From NCBI GenBank assembly GCA_963664395.2, contig OY761159.2, positions 2,432,001 through 2,496,000 on the forward strand: DNA of 64,000 nucleotides. Direction: 5' to 3'. Numbering within the stretch: the stretch's first letter is position 1; each line of letters opens with the position of its first letter. The position numbers were made by a program, and so were the translations under genes. The notes under the pieces were generated by a model, which saw only the letters and a program-made list of their open reading frames with translations, was not told the origin of the DNA and did not search any database. Shown in pieces: positions 37,309-48,519 of this stretch. Source of the stretch: Candidatus Binatia bacterium (GTDB taxonomy: Bacteria > Desulfobacterota > Binatia > Bin18).

Positions 37309-38424
37309 CTACACTTTTGCGGTATAGCGGTTGGTGTCATACAAGCGCTCAAGGTCTACGGTGTTGAGCCCGCCGACGGCTTGACTGAGGGGGACCAGGC
37401 TGAGCCGGCAGGTTGGGCCAATGCCCTGCGCACTGACCATCTGCCCCCAGTCGCCGCGCAGCACGGCTTCGACGGCTGTCGTGCCAAACATCCGCCCCAT
37501 AATCCGGTCCAGCGCCGACGGACTGCCGCCGCGCTGGCTATGGCCGATTACCAACTCGCGTGAATCAAAAGGCGTGTCGCGGCGAATCCGGTGGGCGAGT
37601 TGACTCCCAATGCCGCCCAATCGTTCATGCCCGAATGCATCCCGGCTGGCATCCAGGGTCACCACGCCCTCCTCATCCGCGTGGGCGCCTTCGGCCGCCA
37701 CAATCACCGCATAGCGGGGGTAACGCCGGTCCTGCTCGCCACGCGCCAGACGTTGGGTCACCAATTCATAGACCCGTTCGTAGGTAAACGGATACTCGGG
37801 GATCAGGGTCAGGGTCGCGCCCCCGGCGACTGCACTCCACAGGGCCAGATGACCGGCATGCCGGCCCATGACCTCGACTACCTGCACCCAATGGTGCGAG
37901 CCGGCCGGGGTGCGCGCCTGCTCGATGATACTGGTGCAGTTGCGCAGGGCGGTATCAAACCCCAGGGTGTAGTCGGTGTGGCTGAGGTCTTTATCAATCG
38001 TTTTCGGAATGCCCACCACCTGGCAGCCCTTTTCACTCAGCCGGTGCGCCACGCCCAGGGTATCTTCTCCGCCCAAGGCGATAACAGCATCCAGGCCAAG
38101 CCGGGCGATATTGGCCAGGACTTCATCCGACCGGTCGTGGGGACGATTGTGCGCACTCGCATCGTCCGGCACTGTCACGCGAAACGGGTTGGTGCGCGAC
38201 GAGCCCAGATTGGTGCCCCCATCGCGGTCCCAGCGCCGAACCTGGTAATCCTCCAGCCGCCCGGCCTCGCCGACCCCTGCGTCGAGTAAACCGTACCAGC
38301 CATCGGGCAGCCCCAGCACTTCCACGCCCTCGGCTGTGGCCCGATAGACAATCGCCTTGAGCGCCGGGTTCAAGCCTGGGGCATCGCCCCCGCCCGTTAA
38401 CACTCCAATTCTTCGTATGCGCAT
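37309..38424 (-). CDS. pfkA: 6-phosphofructokinase, probably PPi-dependent
   Basis: LTGGGDAPGLN, GGTNLGSSRTNP, GGEDT, PKTID, EVMGRHAG. Confidence 0.88.
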   Translation of the reverse strand: MRIRRIGVLTGGGDAPGLNPALKAIVYRATAEGVEVLGLPDGWYGLLDAGVGEAGRLEDYQVRRWDRDGGTNLGSSRTNPFRVTVPDDASAHNRPHDRSDEVLANIARLGLDAVIALGGEDTLGVAHRLSEKGCQVVGIPKTIDKDLSHTDYTLGFDTALRNCTSIIEQARTPAGSHHWVQVVEVMGRHAGHLALWSAVAGGATLTLIPEYPFTYERVYELVTQRLARGEQDRRYPRYAVIVAAEGAHADEEGVVTLDASRDAFGHERLGGIGSQLAHRIRRDTPFDSRELVIGHSQRGGSPSALDRIMGRMFGTTAVEAVLRGDWGQMVSAQGIGPTCRLSLVPLSQAVGGLNTVDLERLYDTNRYTAKV

Positions 38425-38459: not shown

Positions 38460-39941
38460 CTAAAACTTCAACGTCGTCTCAATATAGCCGAAATTGGCGC
38501 TATCGTCGGGATAGATCTGGTCCACGATGCTGTCGCCAAAGACGTGGGCAAAAAAGACGTTGATGTTGATGTGCTTGTTCAGGTTGTAGCTGAGGCTGGT
38601 CTCGATAATCTGAAACAGGTCCCGCTTGCCAAAGGTCGGGCGGCCGACAAAGCCGAAGCCGGCCTGCCGACCTCCCAGGGTTGCGCCAGCACCCTGGTAC
38701 CACAGGTCGTTCTTCTCGCTGACGCGAATATAGTGAAAATCCGTGCGCCAGACCAACCCTTCGAGCGGCCGCAGCATGAGTTGGAAAAAGATGTCTTCGT
38801 TATTCATCAGGTTATAGAAGGTCGAAAAGGAATAGACCCGGGCGGTCGGCAGCATCTGGAAAAAGGTGTCGTGGTCGCCGTCGTTGGGGTCGTCGTCACC
38901 CGAACTGAGGTTGTAGCCAATACGGAACCAGGGTTTCCACGGCAGCCCGCTGGGTTGCCAGCCGGCCTCGGCGGCAAACGCCCAGCCGTTGTGGTCTTGG
39001 CTACCCCAGTCGCCGCCCTGCACCACGCCCCAGCCCATCAGGTCAATCGGGCCGGCTCCGGTCGGCACGACATGAATCAGGTGGCCGCCGCCGGTGTTGA
39101 TAGCCAGGTGCCGGCGGTTGCGGACGGCGGCTGGCCGGTTATCGGTGGGCCGTAGATTCCGCCCGTCAGCGTAGTAGATGTAGAACAGCCGCGCGTCGGT
39201 CGTCTTGGCGAACTCGGGCCGGGTGAGGTTGAAGCCGGCGTACAGGATGTCGATATCGTCAATGGTCTTATTACCGGCCAGGTCAAAACCGGCCTGGGTC
39301 GGATGGGAGCCGTGCAGCGTAAAATTGTAGGCGTCCTTGGTCCAGCTCAGGGTGAAGCCGTCATACGAACGCCCGACGTGGGACCAGCCAAAGGGGCCGA
39401 GCAGACGCTGCGAGATGCGCATTTTCTTGACCCAGTCGATGGTGGGGTCCTTGCTCAGCACTTCCGCGCCTTCGGCGATCGAGTGCCGCCCGCCTCTCAG
39501 GCTGAGGCCGGGCACGCCGAGTTGCTTCAGGGTCAGGTGGGCCTGTTTGAGAAACACGCTGGCATCGCTCTGACGACGATTATGGGACAGATAGACGGGA
39601 CCCAGGCCGAAGGCGCCCTGCGGGGCGGGAGCGCTGGCGTCATCGGGCAGGCCCATCAGGGCCGTGTTTTGCGCCTCAAGGTGCAGGTCGAACAGGTCCT
39701 GCTGCCATTTCAGGCCCAGCTTGGCCACGGTGGCCGCATAGGCATACGATGAATCGCCCGAGGGGCCTTTGAACCAGTCCCAGAACTCGCCCCGCGCGCG
39801 CAGGCTGGCGAAAACTGACAGCTTTGGGGAAATCTGGGTGATTGGGACTTCGGCCTGAAGCGGAGTGGGCCATACAATAAGGAGCCAGAGGACGAGCAGC
39901 AAGGGACGCTGGATGAGAGCAGATGCCTTCCGATAGGTCAT
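38460..39941 (-). CDS. Alginate-export (AlgE-like) outer-membrane beta-barrel protein
   Basis: Signal peptide, alternating beta strands, SGDDDPNDGDHDTFFQMLPT, terminal Phe. Confidence 0.75.
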   Translation of the reverse strand: MTYRKASALIQRPLLLVLWLLIVWPTPLQAEVPITQISPKLSVFASLRARGEFWDWFKGPSGDSSYAYAATVAKLGLKWQQDLFDLHLEAQNTALMGLPDDASAPAPQGAFGLGPVYLSHNRRQSDASVFLKQAHLTLKQLGVPGLSLRGGRHSIAEGAEVLSKDPTIDWVKKMRISQRLLGPFGWSHVGRSYDGFTLSWTKDAYNFTLHGSHPTQAGFDLAGNKTIDDIDILYAGFNLTRPEFAKTTDARLFYIYYADGRNLRPTDNRPAAVRNRRHLAINTGGGHLIHVVPTGAGPIDLMGWGVVQGGDWGSQDHNGWAFAAEAGWQPSGLPWKPWFRIGYNLSSGDDDPNDGDHDTFFQMLPTARVYSFSTFYNLMNNEDIFFQLMLRPLEGLVWRTDFHYIRVSEKNDLWYQGAGATLGGRQAGFGFVGRPTFGKRDLFQIIETSLSYNLNKHININVFFAHVFGDSIVDQIYPDDSANFGYIETTLKF

Positions 39942-40142
39942 TTCGGTGTATCTGGTGTGTTCTGTAGAACTGCTTAGGCATCGTATCATTACTCTCTCCT
40001 CCTCGTCTGTATGCTTTGCCCAGCGCTTCGGTAGAGCAAAACAGGCTAAGCAATGTTGGAGTCAAACACAAGATACGGGAGCGCGTGTGTTCCTGATCCT
40101 TGCGCGGCTTGCGAATGTAGAAAAAGGGGACGCTATTTGACT

Positions 40143-40272
40143 GGAAAAGAGAGGGAGGGGCGGGGGCGGTTGGAGGGACAACCGCCCCCGGGGCAGCCTA
40201 GAAGAGAGTGGAAGGAAGGGCAACTCTCTTCATCAAGCTCAATCAAGAGCTCTGATTCACACGTAGGTAACT
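40143..40272 (-). ncRNA. Candidate sigma54-dependent sRNA/leader with C/U-rich (anti-SD) loops
   Basis: Three consecutive hairpins (40232-40256, 40201-40231, 40161-40190) immediately downstream of a sigma54 promoter; loops CCCUUCCUUCC and UCCCUC. Confidence 0.6.
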
Positions 40273-40282
40273 AGGTAACAAG

Positions 40283-40387
40283 AGCAGGAAGTATGCCAAG
40301 CTGAAGGAGCGGAAAAGGCTGTATTTTTGGGTTGCCGCCGTTTTGAGGTGCCCATCTTTTCAGCATTACTGTGTTGCTTCCTGAGCA
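40283..40387 (-). promoter_or_regulatory. sigma54 promoter (40283-40298) with upstream TGC-N11-GCA (40349-40365) and TGT-N10-GCA (40372-40387) sites
   Basis: TGGCAT-ACTTC-CTGCT on the minus strand. Confidence 0.62.
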
Positions 40388-40559
40388 ATCCGTGGGCGGG
40401 GGCAATACTTTCCTCGGAGATTGTCTGCCGGGGAACAAAATCACATACGATACTGCTCGAACAGCAGCATATTCTGGTCAGGCGCTTTTGACTTTGAGTG
40501 GTCTCAAGGGATAAAGAAGGCAGGCAGGTAAATACGAGCCCGCTACTGGTCATACGCGT

Positions 40560-42305
40560 ATGCTTCCGCATGGACATTATCTGAGTGAGCACCATTTTCT
40601 GATTTTTTTGCTTCAGATCCTGCTGTTGCTGGTGATGGCGCGTGGGTTGGGTGAGGTCTTTCGCCATTGGGGTCATCCGTCCGTTGTCGGGGAAATCCTG
40701 GTTGGTCTTCTCCTGGGTCCAACGCTGCTCGGGCGTCTCTCGCCCGAACTCTACCAGACCCTGTTCCCGCCGGACCCGATCCAATACACCATGCTGGAAA
40801 CGGTTTCCTGGTTTGGCGTGCTCCTGCTCTTGCTTGAGACGGGTCTTGAAGTCGACGTGTCCGCGGCGTGGCAGCAACGTGGCACCGCACTCCGCATTGG
40901 CATTATTGGCGTTATCGTTCCCCTGGCCGTTGGCTTTCTCTTATCGCTGTTGCTGCCTGACCATTACCTCGCCATACCAGACCAGCGGGTGACCTTCGCC
41001 CTCTTCTTAGGCACGACCATGGCAATCAGTGCCATGGTCATTATCGCCCGCGTGCTGCACGACCTGGATTTGATCAAGAGTGACCTGGGGCTGTTAACCC
41101 TGTGTGGCTACGCGGTGAACGATATTTTGGCCTGGGTGATTCTCAGCCTCGTGTTTGCGACCGCAGCGGCTGCCAGCCTGAGCGTTGGTTCGGTCATCCT
41201 GTTGCTGGGGACAGCCGTCGGCTTTACCGCCTTTTGTCTCTCGCTGGGTTTACGCATTGTTGACCAATCGCTGACCGGATTGGTCAAACGCTTACCGCAC
41301 CAACCCGGCGTTGTCCTCACCTTTGTGTGTTGCTTGGGATTGCTGTGTGGGGCAGTCACCCAGTGGATCGGGCTGACTGCCCTGCTTGGGTTTTTTCTGG
41401 CCGGGATTATGGCTGGAGATGCCGGGGCACTTTCTGAGCGGGTGCGGCAGATCCTTACTCAGATGGCCCACGCGATTTTCGTGCCACTCTATTTTGCGAC
41501 GATCGCCATCCAAATAGACTTCTTTGCGCAGTTTGATGCCTTTCTCGTCCTTTTTGTGACCGTCGTCTCAATCGGAGGGAAGTATTTTGGGGCGTGGCTG
41601 GGGGCTCAACAAGCCGGCCTTCCTCCTGTAGACCGGGTTTCAATCGGTATTGCTTTTACTCCCAGTGGCGTGACCGGCATTGTGGTTGCCGCCGTGGCGG
41701 TGGAGCATCAAATCATTACCATTCCAGTCTTTGTTTCTATTGTCCTCTCGGCGATTATCTCTTCTCTTATTGTCGGACCCTGGCTGATGTGGTCCATTCG
41801 ACGCCGACCGGCTATGAATATCGCCGAGCTGTTTGTGCGTCGGGCGCTGATTCCTGGCTTGACCGGCATGACGCGCCGGGCGGTGATCCGGGAACTCTGT
41901 CAGGAAATAGCGGAACACCATCATGCCTTGGACCAGGAAACCGTATTCGCGGCGGTTCAGGCTCGGGAAGAGTTGATGGGGACGGGCGTCGGGAGTGGGA
42001 TTGCCATCCCGCATGCCCGTCTGGCAGCGCTCTCGAAACCTGTGCTTACCTGCGGACGTTCGCCGGCTGGGGTTGATTGGGACGCCCCGGATGGATTGCC
42101 CGTGCAGTTGGTCTTTCTGCTGCTCACGCCTGTTCAGGACGAGGGTGCGCAGTTGCAGATTCTGGCGGCGATAGCCCGCACGATGAGTGCACAAGAGGTG
42201 CGACAGAGCTTGGTACAGGCTGAGGATGCAGCCGAGTTGTGGCAGCGCTTGCACGACGTGTTGCAGTCGGCCGAGGCTCAGGTCGTACCACACCAGCCCG
42301 CCTAG
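40560..42305 (+). CDS. CPA2 cation:proton antiporter fused to a C-terminal PTS EIIA-2 domain
   Basis: PSVVGEILVGLLLGP, GLEVD, AVNDILAW, many TM helices; REELMGTGVGSGIAIPHAR and DAPDG.PV.LVFLL. Confidence 0.88.
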   Translation: MLPHGHYLSEHHFLIFLLQILLLLVMARGLGEVFRHWGHPSVVGEILVGLLLGPTLLGRLSPELYQTLFPPDPIQYTMLETVSWFGVLLLLLETGLEVDVSAAWQQRGTALRIGIIGVIVPLAVGFLLSLLLPDHYLAIPDQRVTFALFLGTTMAISAMVIIARVLHDLDLIKSDLGLLTLCGYAVNDILAWVILSLVFATAAAASLSVGSVILLLGTAVGFTAFCLSLGLRIVDQSLTGLVKRLPHQPGVVLTFVCCLGLLCGAVTQWIGLTALLGFFLAGIMAGDAGALSERVRQILTQMAHAIFVPLYFATIAIQIDFFAQFDAFLVLFVTVVSIGGKYFGAWLGAQQAGLPPVDRVSIGIAFTPSGVTGIVVAAVAVEHQIITIPVFVSIVLSAIISSLIVGPWLMWSIRRRPAMNIAELFVRRALIPGLTGMTRRAVIRELCQEIAEHHHALDQETVFAAVQAREELMGTGVGSGIAIPHARLAALSKPVLTCGRSPAGVDWDAPDGLPVQLVFLLLTPVQDEGAQLQILAAIARTMSAQEVRQSLVQAEDAAELWQRLHDVLQSAEAQVVPHQPA

Positions 42306-42399: not shown

Positions 42400-43797
42400 T
42401 TACAATAAATTATAGCGCTTCATCCGCTCCCGCAGGACATTGCGACTCACGCCCAGCAGCCGGGCGGCCTGGACCTGATTATAGCGAGAGAGTTCAAGCG
42501 CCTTGCCGACAACAAGTTGCTCGGAACGAGCAAGGACATTGCCCGCGTGCTGGGCAAACAGCTCTTCCAGGGTTGCATTCAGGGCGGCTTCGACGTTGGG
42601 CGGTGGGGATACGGAGGCTGCCGGAGCACTGCTGGTGGGCAGGATGAGATCTTCCTCGGTAATAAGCGGGCCACGTGAGTATAGTACCGTTTGGGCAATA
42701 ACGTTCTCAAGCTCACGGACATTCCCCGGCCAGGAGTAGGCGAGGAGTTTCTCACCGGCGGTCGCAGAAAACTCTTGCGGTCCGTTTTTATTGTCCTGCG
42801 TATGCAGTCGAAGGAGATGCTTGGCTATGAGGAGGATGTCTTCCCCGCGCTCCCGCAAGGGCGGCAGATTAATCCGCACGACATTGAGTCGATAATACAA
42901 GTCTTCACGAAACCGTCCATCTTGAAGCAGCGTTTCGAGCGCCTGGTTGGTCGCCGCAATAATACGCACGTTGATCTGCCGTGAGCGCCGTCCTCCCAGC
43001 CGGTATATCTCGCGTTCTTGCAAAACGCGGAGCAGTTTGGCCTGGAGGAGGGGGGGCATGTCTCCAATTTCATCCAGGAATAGCGTTCCGCCGTGGGCGA
43101 TCTCAAATTTTCCTGGGCGTGATTCGACTGCCCCGGAAAAGGCGCCTCGCTCATGGCCAAACAGCTCACTTTCCAGCAGGGAGTCTGGAATGGCTGCACA
43201 ATTAATGGCCAGGAATGGTCCATTACTGCGTTGCGAGTAGGTATGCAGGGCGTGGGCAACAAGCTCTTTGCCCGTACCGCTTTCGCCTGTAATCAAAATC
43301 GTAATGTCACGCGCCGCACTTTTGCCGATAATTTTATACACTTCCTGCATAGCCTGACTGTTCCCCAACATGGGGACAGACTCGGGCGGCAGTGTTTCCG
43401 CACTCGCTCCGTGCGGGGGAATGGCGGGGTCTTCAGAGCTATGTTTTTGGAGCGTACGGACAATCAGCTGCTTCAGGGTTTCGACATCAAAGGGCTTGAC
43501 CAGATAGTCGTCCGCATCAAGCGTGGTAGACCGGATGGCCGTTTCGGCTAAAACAAAAGCCGTCATCATGATGACGGGGATGGTTGGCTGGCGCTGTTTG
43601 ATTTCTTCCAGGGTAGAGAGTCCGTCGCGGTTGGGCATGCGTACGTCCATGAGGATGAGCCGTAAGGCCGGATCGTCTATTTTTTCCAGCGCTTCGACCC
43701 CGGAGAATGCTGACAGCAGTTCGTATTCCTGACCGAGGACGCGTCGAAAGGAATAGTGGACGTTGCGTTCATCATCGACAATAAGAATCTTTTCCAT
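42400..43797 (-). CDS. sigma54-dependent response regulator (NtrC family)
   Basis: ILIVDDE, LMDVRMP, GESGTGKE, ESELFGHERGAFSGA, LFLDEIGD, FREDLYYRL, WPGNVRELEN, C-terminal Fis HTH. Confidence 0.92.
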   Translation of the reverse strand: MEKILIVDDERNVHYSFRRVLGQEYELLSAFSGVEALEKIDDPALRLILMDVRMPNRDGLSTLEEIKQRQPTIPVIMMTAFVLAETAIRSTTLDADDYLVKPFDVETLKQLIVRTLQKHSSEDPAIPPHGASAETLPPESVPMLGNSQAMQEVYKIIGKSAARDITILITGESGTGKELVAHALHTYSQRSNGPFLAINCAAIPDSLLESELFGHERGAFSGAVESRPGKFEIAHGGTLFLDEIGDMPPLLQAKLLRVLQEREIYRLGGRRSRQINVRIIAATNQALETLLQDGRFREDLYYRLNVVRINLPPLRERGEDILLIAKHLLRLHTQDNKNGPQEFSATAGEKLLAYSWPGNVRELENVIAQTVLYSRGPLITEEDLILPTSSAPAASVSPPPNVEAALNATLEELFAQHAGNVLARSEQLVVGKALELSRYNQVQAARLLGVSRNVLRERMKRYNLL

Positions 43798-43801
43798 ATG
43801 G

Positions 43802-45068
43802 CTAGAGTGGGAGGCGGATGCAAACCGTTGTTCCTGCTCCTGGCTGAGAGAAGAGGCGCAGGCGTCCGTTATGGCCTTCAATAATACGTTGCGATATGGA
43901 CAGCCCGAGCCCGGTGCCGCCTTGTTTGGTCGTAAAAAACGGGTCAAAGAGCTGTGTCCGAACCCGTGGCGAGATGCCTTCACCTTGGTCAGCAATGGAG
44001 ACCTGAAAGCTGGCCGCTACCGACTCCGATGTGAACGGTCAGTGTCCCGCCGTGTGGCATGGCCTGAATGGCATTGAGCAAGAGGTTCAAGAACACCTGC
44101 TTGATCTGGGCCCCGTCAACCCAGGCCAAGGGGAGATCGTCGGCCCAATCCTTGCGGATGATGACCCCACGCACGCGCGCTTCCGGACCAATCAAGAGAA
44201 GGGTTTCTTCCATGACTTCCTGGAGTCGTTCGCGTTGAAAATGCGGCGAACGCGGGCCGGCAAATTCCAGAAACTGATCGAGGAGGAGTTTGATGCGTTG
44301 CAACTCGCCCTGGACAATATTGAGATCATCCGACAGCCCGTTCGGTAGGGCTTGGCCTCGCGGGTAGTCCCTTTGATAGTCCCTCTGATAGTCTCTCTGA
44401 TAGTCTTGGGCCATGGCGTAGATCAACATGCTGACCGTATTCAGCGGGTTGCGCAGTTCATGGGCCAGTCCTGCGGACAGCTTGCCCAGGGCGGCCAATT
44501 TCTCGGATTGACGCAGCTGTTCTCTGGCCTGCATTTCTTCCCGATGGAGGGTAGCATTTTCTATGGCAATGGCAGATTGGCTGGCGAGCAAGGTCAGCAG
44601 CCGGACGTCACTCTCCTCAAAACTACGCGGTTCTGTCTTATAGACATTCAGGACGCCGATAATATCAGTCTTGGTCCGCAGCGGAACGGAGAGCAGTGAG
44701 CACAGTCCCTCACGTCGGGCCAGGTCTGCCACGCGGTAGCGTGTTTCTTCCCGAACATCCGGCGCGTACAGCGGCTGGCCGGTTTTGATCACTTCCCCAG
44801 TCAGACTCGTAGCGACCTCGCGTGCCGGCTGGGCGAGGTATTCTTCGCTCGCTCCCTCAGTGGCTGCGGGCCGCAGCGTGCCTTCTTCGGGATTCAGGAG
44901 GAGGATGGAGGAGACGCGCGCAGCCATGAGACGACGGGCATGCGCAACAATACGCTGGAGCACTTCTTCCAATTGTAAAGTTGATGAGATTTCAGCCCCA
45001 ACGGTGAACAGAGCTTCGAGCCGTTCTTCGAGATGTCCCTGGAGCGTATGCATCGCGACCTTTCTCAA
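43802..45068 (-). pseudogene. GAF sensor histidine kinase (NtrB-like position) with a +1 frameshift at 44006-44008 cutting off the ATPase G-boxes
   Basis: AHELRNPL, NLLLNAIQAM; removing one base restores VSIADQGEGI...FDPFFTTKQGGTGLGLSI...RLPL* ending at 43802. Confidence 0.85.
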
Positions 45069-45130
45069 AATGGGACCGAGTAGAAGAGTATGGTGCGAGC
45101 CATATCCCCAAGGGTGTCCGATTGGAGTGG

Positions 45131-45159
45131 AAGCAGGACGGGAACCTCCCGTCCTGCTT
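45131..45159. terminator. Hairpin downstream of amtB
   Basis: AAGCAGGACGGGA-ACC-TCCCGTCCTGCTT. Confidence 0.55.
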
Positions 45160-45164
45160 GGTGG

Positions 45165-46607
45165 TTAGGCCTCTTCCGCACGGAGACGTGGAGTTGGTTC
45201 CGCCAGCATCGATTGCCGGCTGGCCATACCAATAGTCGAACCCCCTGAGGAGAACAGCTGAGAGGCGCCGTAGGCCACGTTGCCATGCTCGCCAACATCC
45301 AAGCCCTCGGACTCTTCTTCCGGCGAGACCCGGAGTCCCATGCTGGCCTTAATGATGCCGAAAAGGATAAGGGCAAACGTAAAGGTAAAGATACCAATTG
45401 CGACGATACCGATGATCTGACTGACGAGCTGCGCACCACCGGCCAAGTTACCGAAAATGCCGACCGCCAGGGTGCCCCAGATGCCACAGGTGAGGTGGAC
45501 GGAGAGAGCGCCGACCGGGTCGTCAATCTTGATTTTGTCAAAGAACAACACAGACCCAACAACAATCGCGCCGGCAATCAGCCCAATCAGCGTGGCTGAC
45601 ATAGCTGCCATTTGATCCGCACCCGCGGTAATACCGACGAGTCCGGCCAGAATCCCGTTTAACGCCATGGAGAGGTCCGGTTTTTGGAGGAGTATCCAAG
45701 AGGTGGCCATCGCGCCCACACCACCGGCCGCGGCTGCAATACAGGTCGTGACCAGGGTTAAAGAGACGAGATTGGGGTCGCCTGAAAGGACGGAACCGCC
45801 ATTAAATCCAAACCAACCCAGCCACAGCAAGAAGACGCCAATAGTGGCAAGCGGCATATTACTGGGCAAAATGGGTCGAATACGGCCATCTGGGAGATAT
45901 TTCCCCATCCGGGGGCCAAGTAGGATGGCACCAGCCAGGGCTCCCCAACCACCAACTGAATGGACGATGGTTGAGCCGGCAAAGTCATAAAAGGGCGTTT
46001 CCATCATATCCAGCCAGCCCGCGCCCCACTTCCAACTACCGGTGATGGGATAGGAGACCGCTACAAAGAGAGTTGCAAACACCATGAAAGAGGACAGCTT
46101 TATCCGCTCTGCAACCGCGCCGGAGACAATGGTTGCCGCAGTCGCCGCAAACATGGCTTGGAAGAGAAAGTCTGTCCAATAGGTATAGCCCTCACTGTAC
46201 ACGCTGGTCTGTGAAGCCACTTCGTCCGTCACCTCAACGCCAAACCCGGCAAACGCAAACCAGCCGGCAGAGCCTTCGGCAAAACCTGGATACATCAGAT
46301 TAAACCCACACAGCGCGTAGGTAAGAATGCCGATGCAGATGACAAAGGTGTTTTTGAATAAGATATTAACGGTGTTCTTGGATTGCGTCAGACCTGACTC
46401 CAGGGTGGCAAAACCAAGGTGCATAATGAACACGAGCGCCGCCGCTATCATCATCCACAAGTTATGTGCGGTAAACAGGGCAAAACCCTGTGACGCGGCA
46501 AATTCTGCGTAATCTTTGTACTGTGGTGCGTCTTCGGCAAAGGCGAGCGGTGCAAGCAGCCCGATGCCAAGCGTAGCGAGTGACCCCAAAGCGAATAAAC
46601 GTTTCAT
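45165..46607 (-). CDS. amtB: Ammonium transporter
   Basis: FQAMFAATAATIVSGAVAER, DFAGSTIVHSVGG, LWLGWFGFNGGS, DDPVGALSVH. Confidence 0.95.
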   Translation of the reverse strand: MKRLFALGSLATLGIGLLAPLAFAEDAPQYKDYAEFAASQGFALFTAHNLWMMIAAALVFIMHLGFATLESGLTQSKNTVNILFKNTFVICIGILTYALCGFNLMYPGFAEGSAGWFAFAGFGVEVTDEVASQTSVYSEGYTYWTDFLFQAMFAATAATIVSGAVAERIKLSSFMVFATLFVAVSYPITGSWKWGAGWLDMMETPFYDFAGSTIVHSVGGWGALAGAILLGPRMGKYLPDGRIRPILPSNMPLATIGVFLLWLGWFGFNGGSVLSGDPNLVSLTLVTTCIAAAAGGVGAMATSWILLQKPDLSMALNGILAGLVGITAGADQMAAMSATLIGLIAGAIVVGSVLFFDKIKIDDPVGALSVHLTCGIWGTLAVGIFGNLAGGAQLVSQIIGIVAIGIFTFTFALILFGIIKASMGLRVSPEEESEGLDVGEHGNVAYGASQLFSSGGSTIGMASRQSMLAEPTPRLRAEEA

Positions 46608-46792
46608 CCCAACCTCCTTCTGTGGTGCGATACGTTCCTTCCTGCCTTCATAACGTGTTGAGATGCCCTGCCCCACACAAGTATCGAGAATGCCATTTTG
46701 ATTCGGTTGATATTCTCGATACTTTCGGTTGTCATGCCAGGGCTCCTTATCGATGTTGCCCTCACAACATCAGAGCCCCGGCACGGTTAGTA

Positions 46793-48452
<1,660 letters not shown>

Positions 48453-48519
48453 GCATTACCCCCTTAAGATAAAAATGTGACCCTTGAATTCTGGCTGGGA
48501 CACAACTCTGGGTATGATG

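Follow-up and report, generated by a model that had tools for sequence, protein, structure and literature searches.

A putative sigma-54-dependent nitrogen-limitation small RNA with conserved C/U-rich loops in one genus of Candidatus Binatia

INTRODUCTION

What does the DNA between two divergent genes of a Candidatus Binatia bacterium encode, and does what it encodes act alone or on behalf of a neighbour? The locus lies within a 570-bp intergenic region, part of a 64,000-nucleotide (nt) stretch of contig OY761159.2 that we call the window and whose coordinates are used throughout. On one side is the gene for an outer-membrane porin, followed by one for phosphofructokinase (PFK); on the other, reading away, is a gene whose product joins a Na+/H+ exchanger to an EIIA domain of the PTS (phosphotransferase system), here the exchanger–EIIA gene. 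An earlier note, made from the letters of the window, proposed that the intervening minus strand specifies a small RNA (sRNA) with three hairpins, transcribed from a sigma-54 promoter under NtrC-type control and acting in trans in the nitrogen response; alternatively, it suggested, the same stretch might be an attenuating leader of the porin–PFK operon.

To our knowledge, no member of the Binatia (Binatota) has been cultured, and full-text literature searches turned up no publication that mentions small RNAs of the group. The answer that we reach is that the locus is probably a stand-alone gene for a sigma-54/NtrC-driven nitrogen-limitation sRNA of ~120–130 nt, confined to one genus as far as the searches reach, that would pair in trans with ribosome-binding sites (RBSs). 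We set out below the evidence that carries this interpretation, the points that weigh against it, and the alternatives that each piece of evidence brings to mind. Genomes are coded from G000, that of the window itself, upward (G0xx), and loci extracted from them are coded L0xx.

A CONSERVED, PREDICTED RNA WITH THREE HAIRPINS

When the 130 nt from 40272 to 40143 are folded as minus-strand RNA, they form three hairpins with their loops exposed (−49.9 kcal/mol; z = −5.63), a fold that none of 200 shuffled sequences matched; a 161-nt version of the stretch gives z = −6.33. Every hairpin that the earlier note described is present in the sequence, as is the tail that follows, and the fold was reproduced exactly as drawn. 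The start of the RNA is placed 12 nt past the GC of the −12 element and its end at a T run, and both ends are predicted. The stretch between the sigma-54 box and hairpin 1, ~20 nt long, is variable; the 3′ tail is C/U-rich in all homologues, and varies in length and sequence.

The conserved part of the region coincides with the predicted promoter–RNA unit. In a DNA search of 40 relatives, 18 of the 24 other genomes in the genus had the stretch, at 72–90% identity; beyond the genus there was a single chance match of 25 nt. What the relatives share runs from about 40383, just upstream of the enhancer site, to about 40138, at the T run. There homology ends, and the ~150 nt that remain before the porin start align poorly. 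A covariance model built from 19 sequences (R1) scores 134.6 bits in this genome, where the gene is present in single copy, and 37.6–137.6 bits over 23 of the 28 genus genomes, this one included. Run against 151 genomes sampled across the class, R1 found convincing matches in one Candidatus Binatia genus only, with four others scoring 21.6–25.6 bits. A pattern scan of all the species genomes returned 46 loci, comprising 16 true homologues (at least 86 bits) and 30 chance matches. Weaker matches to R1 within the genus (17–21 bits, L045–L051) were rejected: they are terminator-like and have no sigma-54 box, and the match in G043 is not syntenic. Rfam 15 has no match in the window at gathering thresholds; the best sub-threshold E values are 1.2–5.8.

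The stems are maintained by paired change. In alignment A2, made with MAFFT and without reference to the structure (17 distinct rows), standard pairs fill 95.4% of cells, against 39–51% when the partners are slid, and compensatory changes occur in four of the 27 pairs. In an orthologue alignment fitted to the model (A4, 21 distinct rows), a procedure that leans towards structure, compensatory changes occur in 12 of the 27 pairs; 96.1% of cells are paired there, against 91.1% in shuffles, none of 500 of which reached the observed values, and 41–51% with slid partners. The A4 changes are distributed unevenly, with one of six pairs in helix 1 (93.5% of cells paired, the weakest of the three), four of nine in helix 2 (98.9% paired) and seven of 12 in helix 3. 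Adding four rows from paralogues raises the total to 21 of 27 pairs, but the 5′ part of these rows overlaps their own promoter, so that the helix-1 counts that come from them are unreliable. Helices 2 and 3 are thus well supported and helix 1 weakly.

The loops, in comparison, hardly change. Loop 2 has the core CCUUCC in every orthologue but that of G019, which has CCGUCC, and loop 3 reads UCCCUC in 22 of 23 orthologue rows, the other (G013) reading CCCCUC. This constancy extends to the two most diverged homologues, those of G017 and G013, in which hairpin 3 is rewritten and the arms of hairpin 2 are GAGAAGAAU...GUUCUUCUC instead of GAAGAGAGU...GCUCUCUUC, yet CCUUCC persists. The pattern is one of constant loop motifs on changing stems. 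The earlier note had named loops that differ among homologues as a result that would count against its proposal, and had called for a covariation check; the stems covary and the loops are conserved.

Might the stretch encode a small protein instead? Two frames can be drawn mechanically, one of 53 amino acids from a TTG codon, inside loop 2 (40223–40062), the other of 11–12 codons, spanning hairpin 2. A 2-nt gap throws the first out of frame in the closest relative, and the second contains a stop codon in G015; neither start is preceded by a Shine-Dalgarno sequence, and the substitutions observed are the paired, compensatory ones of an RNA. We find a coding function barely credible, and the earlier note's statement that the stretch has no plausible open reading frame (ORF) holds.

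A second, paralogous sRNA-like unit lies ~520–650 bp upstream of the main copy, within the same intergenic region, in some relatives. This tandem paralogue is found in four of the 28 genus genomes—G042 (L025:855–978), G011, G001 and G018 (L118–L120)—and is absent from the genome of the window. It has a sigma-54 box of its own (TGGCATGCTTTATGCC); the loop of its hairpin 2 reads UUUCCUUCCUUUA, and that of its G+C terminator UUCCCC. Such a tandem copy is what is expected of an RNA gene able to duplicate.

A PUTATIVE SIGMA-54 PROMOTER AND A SHARED ENHANCER

The box upstream of the RNA has its GG and GC dinucleotides spaced as in −24/−12 promoters (consensus TGGCAC-N5-TTGCW). It is present on the minus strand as the earlier note had reported, and is kept in all aligned homologues: TGGCA[T/C]-N5-NTGC occurs in 19 of 19, and in 17 of 17 in a separate promoter comparison. 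The two most divergent homologues retain it too, as TTGGCACGCTTCCTGCA and TTGGCACGTTTCCTGCA in G017 and G013. The genome has the machinery to use such a promoter, with one rpoN gene (a single Sigma54_DBD match, 210.9 bits) and five Sigma54_activat matches of at least 198 bits, two of which are probably one gene on duplicate contigs, leaving four distinct strong enhancer-binding proteins. From the sequence of the box, its conservation and this complement of genes, we infer that transcription of the sRNA depends on sigma-54.

What the earlier note called enhancer-like boxes resolves into one site, TGC-N11-GCA. Of the 23 orthologous loci, 21 have it exactly: 17 from the promoter comparison (17/17) and four more read from alignments. 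The same combination recurs sparingly elsewhere in the genome. Four of the 38 sites that match the promoter pattern have a TGC-N11-GCA beginning 67–87 nt upstream, against 0.22 expected, a comparison in which the offset window was picked after the data had been seen. The four promoters are those of the sRNA, of the gene pair for P-II and glutamine synthetase (glnB–glnA), of the operon that encodes a BBP2 porin, GlnK, AmtB, a kinase and an NtrC-type regulator (here the amtB operon), and of a wax-ester synthase/diacylglycerol acyltransferase (WS/DGAT) gene.

The first three are alike in detail. In most species the sRNA site is TGCTGC-AAAGA-TGGGCA and the amtB-operon site TGCTGC-TCTTC-TGGGCA, so that the half-sites are identical; the glnB site, TGCCTG-GGAAC-TAGGCA, resembles them. 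All 24 homologous loci of the amtB operon retain both box and site, and the glnB sites are conserved over 22 aligned loci. Since the sRNA shares its enhancer half-sites with the amtB operon, and similar ones occur at glnB–glnA, the activator is most likely the NtrC-type regulator, whose gene lies 2 kb upstream of the sRNA and whose product is one of the four strong enhancer-binding proteins; one and the same activator would most likely serve all three sites. The nitrogen link that the earlier note proposed is strengthened in this way, and we infer from the shared half-sites that the sRNA belongs to the nitrogen-limitation response. The design of the WS/DGAT promoter suggests, further, that storage-lipid synthesis may come under the same nitrogen regulon.

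A STAND-ALONE GENE OR THE LEADER OF A PORIN OPERON?

The sRNA points towards the porin gene, ~150 nt beyond it on the same strand, and hairpin 3, a strong one, could attenuate transcription. These points speak for the earlier note's alternative of an attenuating leader, which in its strictest form would be a purely cis-acting 5′ leader of the porin–PFK operon with no function of its own. The gene order in relatives bears on this directly. Twelve syntenic loci were examined. The exchanger–EIIA gene adjoins the sRNA divergently in all 12, and in nine the porin follows the sRNA in the same orientation, the loci of the most divergent genomes, G017 and G013, among them. In G015, G020 and G024 the porin is missing from this position. 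In G015 and G024 a convergent gene comes next, which Pfam identifies as that for the urease alpha subunit, and G020 has a convergent ORF of matching size there (with a 116-amino-acid frame of no Pfam family in between, L109:7357–7707). Nonetheless, these three species keep the promoter, the loops and the paired stems of the sRNA, at 86–108 bits, with compensatory stem differences among them and an exact enhancer in two.

The converse is also found. G022 and G043 keep the porin and the exchanger (92–94% identity), but not the promoter–RNA module. In G022, from which promoter core and RNA are cleanly gone, the first bases of the sigma-54 box are followed at once by the block normally found 3′ of the RNA; in G043, an unrelated sequence of ~230 bp occupies the place of the sRNA (L121:3430–3650). 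This replacement contains a perfect hairpin, CCCTCTCCCCTGGAGGGAGAGGG, and purine-rich runs, and may be a small inserted repeat element. The porin has a conserved upstream block of its own, retained in both genomes. A scan for sigma-70 promoters between sRNA and porin found none.

Promoter and RNA therefore behave as one module, kept or lost independently of the porin. Because the RNA is kept without a co-oriented porin in three species, and the porin without the RNA in two, we regard the sRNA as a stand-alone gene rather than a porin leader. The idea of a leader is weakened accordingly, the more so as conservation stops at the T run instead of continuing to the porin, and we rate a purely cis-acting role as quite improbable.

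A POSSIBLE MODE OF ACTION

If the sRNA acts alone, what might it act upon? The sequence of events that we envisage begins with the activator, which would bind TGC-N11-GCA, ~85 nt upstream, and cause the sigma-54 promoter to start transcription; were this activator the NtrC-type regulator, as is most likely, the RNA would be made under nitrogen limitation. The transcript is predicted to fold into its three hairpins, with loops 2 and 3 (CCCUUCCUUCC and UCCCUC) and the 3′ tail displaying C/U-rich sequences. These could then pair in trans with purine-rich ribosome-binding regions of messenger RNAs and block the initiation of translation.

Several features point in this direction. Three C/U-rich motifs are present in the one short RNA, CCCUUCCUUCC, UCCCUC and CCCCUCCCUCUC. 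CCUCC, which forms the core of the 3′ end of this genome's 16S rRNA (...GGAUCACCUCCUUUCU), occurs both in loop 3 and in the tail, and a related sequence, CCUUCCUUCC, in loop 2. Loops 2 and 3 stay single-stranded in the fold and are conserved, as candidate seeds should be. Anti-Shine-Dalgarno sRNAs such as NfeR1 characteristically expose C/U-rich motifs that are conserved while their stems vary, and by analogy with these, RBS occlusion in trans is the most likely mechanism.

The earlier note had listed the RBSs of narK, nirB, amtB and the kinase for a check of pairing. Loop 2, loop 3 and the tail were scanned for duplexes against 4485 crude start regions, in which the choice of start codons favoured Shine-Dalgarno sites, a bias; the scans ranked generic strong Shine-Dalgarno sites first and gave nothing specific for those genes. 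The five best loop-2 sites lie upstream of genes for NuoF, a beta-lactamase-family protein, a DUF697 protein, a luciferase-like monooxygenase and an MMPL protein, none of them a nitrogen gene. Among the nitrogen genes of the window, that for a NarK-like member of the major facilitator superfamily is alone in the top 1.2% for loop 2, a rank without significance once 45 comparisons are allowed for. The 335 sites complementary to nine-mers of loop 2 show no pattern.

Two other explanations of the C/U-rich motifs deserve mention at this point. RNAs such as CrcZ and RsmY/Z sequester an RNA-binding protein by means of repeated motifs, and the Binatia RNA might likewise titrate a protein rather than pair with mRNAs: it has three exposed C/U-rich motifs in a short span, and its loops are conserved even though the scans found no specific mRNA partner. 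There is no candidate protein, however, and since the motifs hold the exact anti-Shine-Dalgarno core, CCUCC, pairing is the simpler reading; we consider titration improbable. The other explanation is more sweeping. With three exposed CCUCC-type motifs, the RNA could be a mimic of the 16S 3′ end, induced by nitrogen starvation, that acts as a general brake on Shine-Dalgarno-led translation, and at the same time one case of a sigma-54/three-hairpin/C/U-loop design that has arisen independently in several phyla, the first two elements of which are also present in Pxr of myxobacteria. We give this bolder idea a slim chance.

WEIGHING THE EVIDENCE

What emerges of the new trans-acting nitrogen-response sRNA announced by the earlier note is, then, a separate unit, conserved, structured and non-coding, that has a conserved sigma-54 promoter and enhancer to itself; the trans-acting part found no specific target in the pairing scans. 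The interpretation that we favour, a stand-alone nitrogen-limitation sRNA that occludes RBSs in trans, has a number of observations weighing against it, and these are best considered together.

Some concern the promoter and its activator. The pattern TGGCA[CT]N5[CT]TGC[ACT] is not enriched in the genome, 38 matches in 5.04 Mb against 33.6 expected; it is conservation among relatives, not the promoter pattern alone, that lifts the sRNA locus above chance. The sRNA enhancers of G019 and G024 lack the exact outer triplets. At −65 to −67, the sRNA enhancer lies 12–20 nt nearer the box than most amtB and glnB sites do (−77 to −88; −68 in G019). The best NCBIfam model for the regulator is ntrC (TIGR01818), but its 461.5 bits fall short of the cut-off, 558.6, and in four of the 12 syntenic loci (G014, G019, G017 and G013) its gene is not adjacent to the sRNA. 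The kinase encoded next to it is of GAF-HisKA make-up, too little to call it a typical NtrB.

Others concern the RNA and its action. All of the covariation comes from within one genus, the larger counts rest on model-fitted alignments, and helix 1 is weak. Two species, G022 and G043, have lost the gene. Almost every strong Shine-Dalgarno sequence would pair with the C/U loops, and among the candidate targets none stood out as specific or as connected with nitrogen. A scan for canonical intrinsic terminators from 39800 to 40700 found none, and hairpin 3 itself fails: the T run begins 12 nt past its stem, with no U tract directly adjoining.

This last observation lends something to the idea of a mixed role, in which the sRNA is real, but partial read-through of hairpin 3 also puts the porin and PFK genes under nitrogen control. 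The porin's presence on the same strand in nine of the 12 loci, most divergent ones included, fits such an arrangement; so does the amtB operon of this genome, which also opens with a porin and thereby makes a nitrogen-regulated porin plausible. Yet the porin keeps its own upstream block and persists where the sigma-54 promoter has been deleted, the RNA is retained without the porin in three species, and no contig from the RNA libraries joins the two (though a gap alone proves nothing). We think a mixed role unlikely.

Nine RNA runs contain parts of 39600–40900, and contigs of four metatranscriptome runs (X1–X4) were placed on the locus; such contigs carry no strand and no transcript ends, and gaps in their cover prove nothing. 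They cover the exchanger gene and the 5′ part of the porin, where three runs from a single study reach 40081, 40055 and 40025. Two aspects do not favour the sRNA. No contig of the four runs falls on 40082–40218, a gap that, in strandless contigs, proves nothing, and one X1 contig, 40219–40450, crosses the predicted start and the promoter, unlike a transcript from 40272. This contig may represent the other strand, DNA carried over from a neighbouring strain, or read-through. It has an 8-nt deletion at 40264, as do most relatives, so the run contains a close relative and not the exact strain.

That the contig may belong to either strand raises one further question, whether there is an RNA at all. 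The conserved block could be a regulatory region acting as DNA, for the divergent exchanger–EIIA gene, for example, which it always adjoins. We hold this to be very improbable: DNA bound by proteins would not be expected to maintain three helices by compensatory double substitutions, the exchanger gene starts 260–420 nt away from the block, and G022 and G043 keep that gene without the block.

COMPARISON WITH KNOWN sRNAs

Stand-alone sRNAs with −24/−12 promoters are familiar from other bacteria, and include Qrr1–5, GlmY and CrcZ, whose enhancer-binding response regulators are LuxO, GlrR and CbrB, respectively. These differ from the Binatia sRNA in activator, signal, structure and mode of action, and no Rfam match links them to it. 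Three other sRNAs come closer.

NrsZ of Pseudomonas is a nitrogen-regulated sRNA with a sigma-54 promoter of the TGGCAC-N5-CTGCA type, induced via NtrB/C and RpoN. It carries the loop motif ACAGGCAG, is processed to units of ~40 nt, and activates rhlA by opening a self-inhibitory structure (PMC4253122). The Binatia sRNA resembles NrsZ in its sigma-54 promoter, its place beside an ntrC-like region, its several stem-loops with a conserved loop motif, a promoter conserved across a genus, and a variable number of module copies; induction through NtrB/C and RpoN, predicted for Binatia, would be a further likeness. The two have no sequence likeness. The NrsZ motif is absent from the 130-nt Binatia sequence, the Binatia loops are C/U-rich and anti-Shine-Dalgarno-like, and the phyla differ.

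NfeR1 (alpha-r14), found in rhizobia (Alphaproteobacteria), silences mRNAs, including that of ntrB, at the RBS. It displays an identical CCUCCUCCC in three hairpins, and is activated by LsrB and repressed by NtrC (PMC10746234). Three hairpins, near-repeated, unpaired anti-Shine-Dalgarno motifs rich in C and U, differing stems and a link to nitrogen are common to NfeR1 and the Binatia sRNA. NfeR1, though, has no sigma-54 promoter to drive it and comes from another phylum, its word CCUCCUCCC does not occur in the Binatia sRNA, and no Rfam family matches the latter.

Pxr, which gates fruiting-body development in myxobacteria, is a third parallel. Both RNAs are ~108–130 nt long, triple stem-loops with a sigma-54 promoter, encoded beside a sigma-54-dependent response regulator (PMC5568312). 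Both are also restricted to a lineage and have, in some species, tandem paralogues with sigma-54 promoters of their own. Searched with R1, a Corallococcus genome, in which we assume from the literature that pxr is present, gave nothing Pxr-like; the best match (18.9 bits) is a terminator with no sigma-54 box.

Judged by sequence, the Binatia sRNA belongs to none of the NrsZ, NfeR1 and Pxr families. It appears to be a real, new sRNA family of a known kind, whose nitrogen control is well argued and whose mode of action is plausible. By analogy, it probably combines the features of two of these: the NtrC/sigma-54-driven sRNA encoded beside ntrC, as in NrsZ, and the three-hairpin anti-Shine-Dalgarno type, as in NfeR1.

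For the uncultured Binatia, the locus offers a well-supported candidate for a non-coding regulator. Together with the enhancer that it appears to share with glnB–glnA, with the glnK-amtB-ntrBC-like operon and with the gene for a wax-ester/triacylglycerol synthase, it yields a first sketch of a sigma-54 nitrogen regulon in these bacteria. It would also be an independent case of a multi-hairpin sRNA driven by sigma-54 beside its probable regulator, and would support the view that this arrangement has evolved repeatedly. The module of promoter, enhancer and RNA is compact, ~230 bp, and amenable to a heterologous host.

THE NEIGHBOURHOOD AND OTHER FEATURES OF THE GENOME

The coordinates of the sRNA gene, its parts, its neighbours and the promoters compared with its own are collected in Table 1.

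Table 1. The sRNA locus, neighbouring genes and comparison promoters (window coordinates, except where an extracted locus is named)
Feature	Position	Strand	Basis or remark
Upstream activator site TGCTGAAAAGATGGGCA, TGC-N11-GCA	40365–40349	−	Centred ~85 nt upstream of predicted start
Sigma-54 (−24/−12) promoter TGGCATACTTCCTGCT	40298–40283	−	TGGCAT-ACTTC-CTGCT; sequence
Predicted sRNA, ~128 nt	40272–40145 (about)	−	Fold and covariance model; ends predicted
Hairpin 1, core AGCUC/GAGCU, loop UUGAUU	40256–40232	−	Fold
Hairpin 2, 9-bp stem, GAAGAGAGU-UGCCCUUCCUUCC-ACUCUCUUC	40231–40201	−	Sequence, fold
Hairpin 2 loop UGCCCUUCCUUCC, 13 nt	40222–40210	−	Sequence, fold
Hairpin 3, 12-bp G+C stem	40190–40161	−	Presumed terminator; sequence, fold
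Hairpin 3 loop UCCCUC	40178–40173	−	Sequence, fold
C/U-rich 3′ tail CCCCUCCCUCUCUUUU	40160–40145	−	Sequence
Alginate_exp-family outer-membrane porin	38460–39989	−	Downstream neighbour; Pfam
Phosphofructokinase (PFK)	37309–38424	−	After porin; Pfam
Na+/H+ exchanger fused to C-terminal PTS EIIA(Ntr)/PtsN-like domain	40560–42305	+	Divergent neighbour; Pfam, NCBIfam
NtrC-type response regulator	42400–43995	−	Last gene of operon 42400–48452; Pfam, NCBIfam
GAF-HisKA kinase	43989–45068	−	Pfam
AmtB	45165–46676	−	Pfam
P-II/GlnK	46793–47131	−	Pfam
BBP2 porin	47157–48452	−	First gene of GlnK-AmtB operon; Pfam
Sigma-54 box of amtB operon TGGCATCAGCTTTGCT	48535–48520	−	Comparison promoter
TGC-N11-GCA site of amtB operon TGCCGCTCTTCTAAGCA	48622–48606	−	Comparison promoter
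P-II + glutamine synthetase promoter, box and TGC-N11-GCA	L116 ~2900–3010	−	
Wax-ester synthase/DGAT promoter, box and TGC-N11-GCA	L115 ~260–370	+	

The exchanger part of the exchanger–EIIA fusion is of the CPA2 type, and the start region of its gene has no recognisable Shine-Dalgarno sequence. Overlapping the amtB operon, a 540-amino-acid frame can be read on the plus strand (46845–48467). It matches no Pfam family and is probably a shadow of the minus-strand genes for the BBP2 porin and GlnK, in which case the apparent homologues that tblastn finds for it reflect that porin and glnK.

Several small contigs of the genome (C3, C6, C7, C10, C12, C13 and C14) repeat stretches of C1 with few differences. 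They contain identical matches to the promoter pattern and identical loop-2 complement sites, and on C7 an enhancer-binding protein with an identical score. This fits strain-variant duplicates, and the contamination estimate of 5.4%. Near the start of the window, on the minus strand (1146–2463), two overlapping ORFs match the C-terminal (119–318) and N-terminal (3–119) parts of an McrBC model, as if a frameshift had broken a single restriction-system gene in two.

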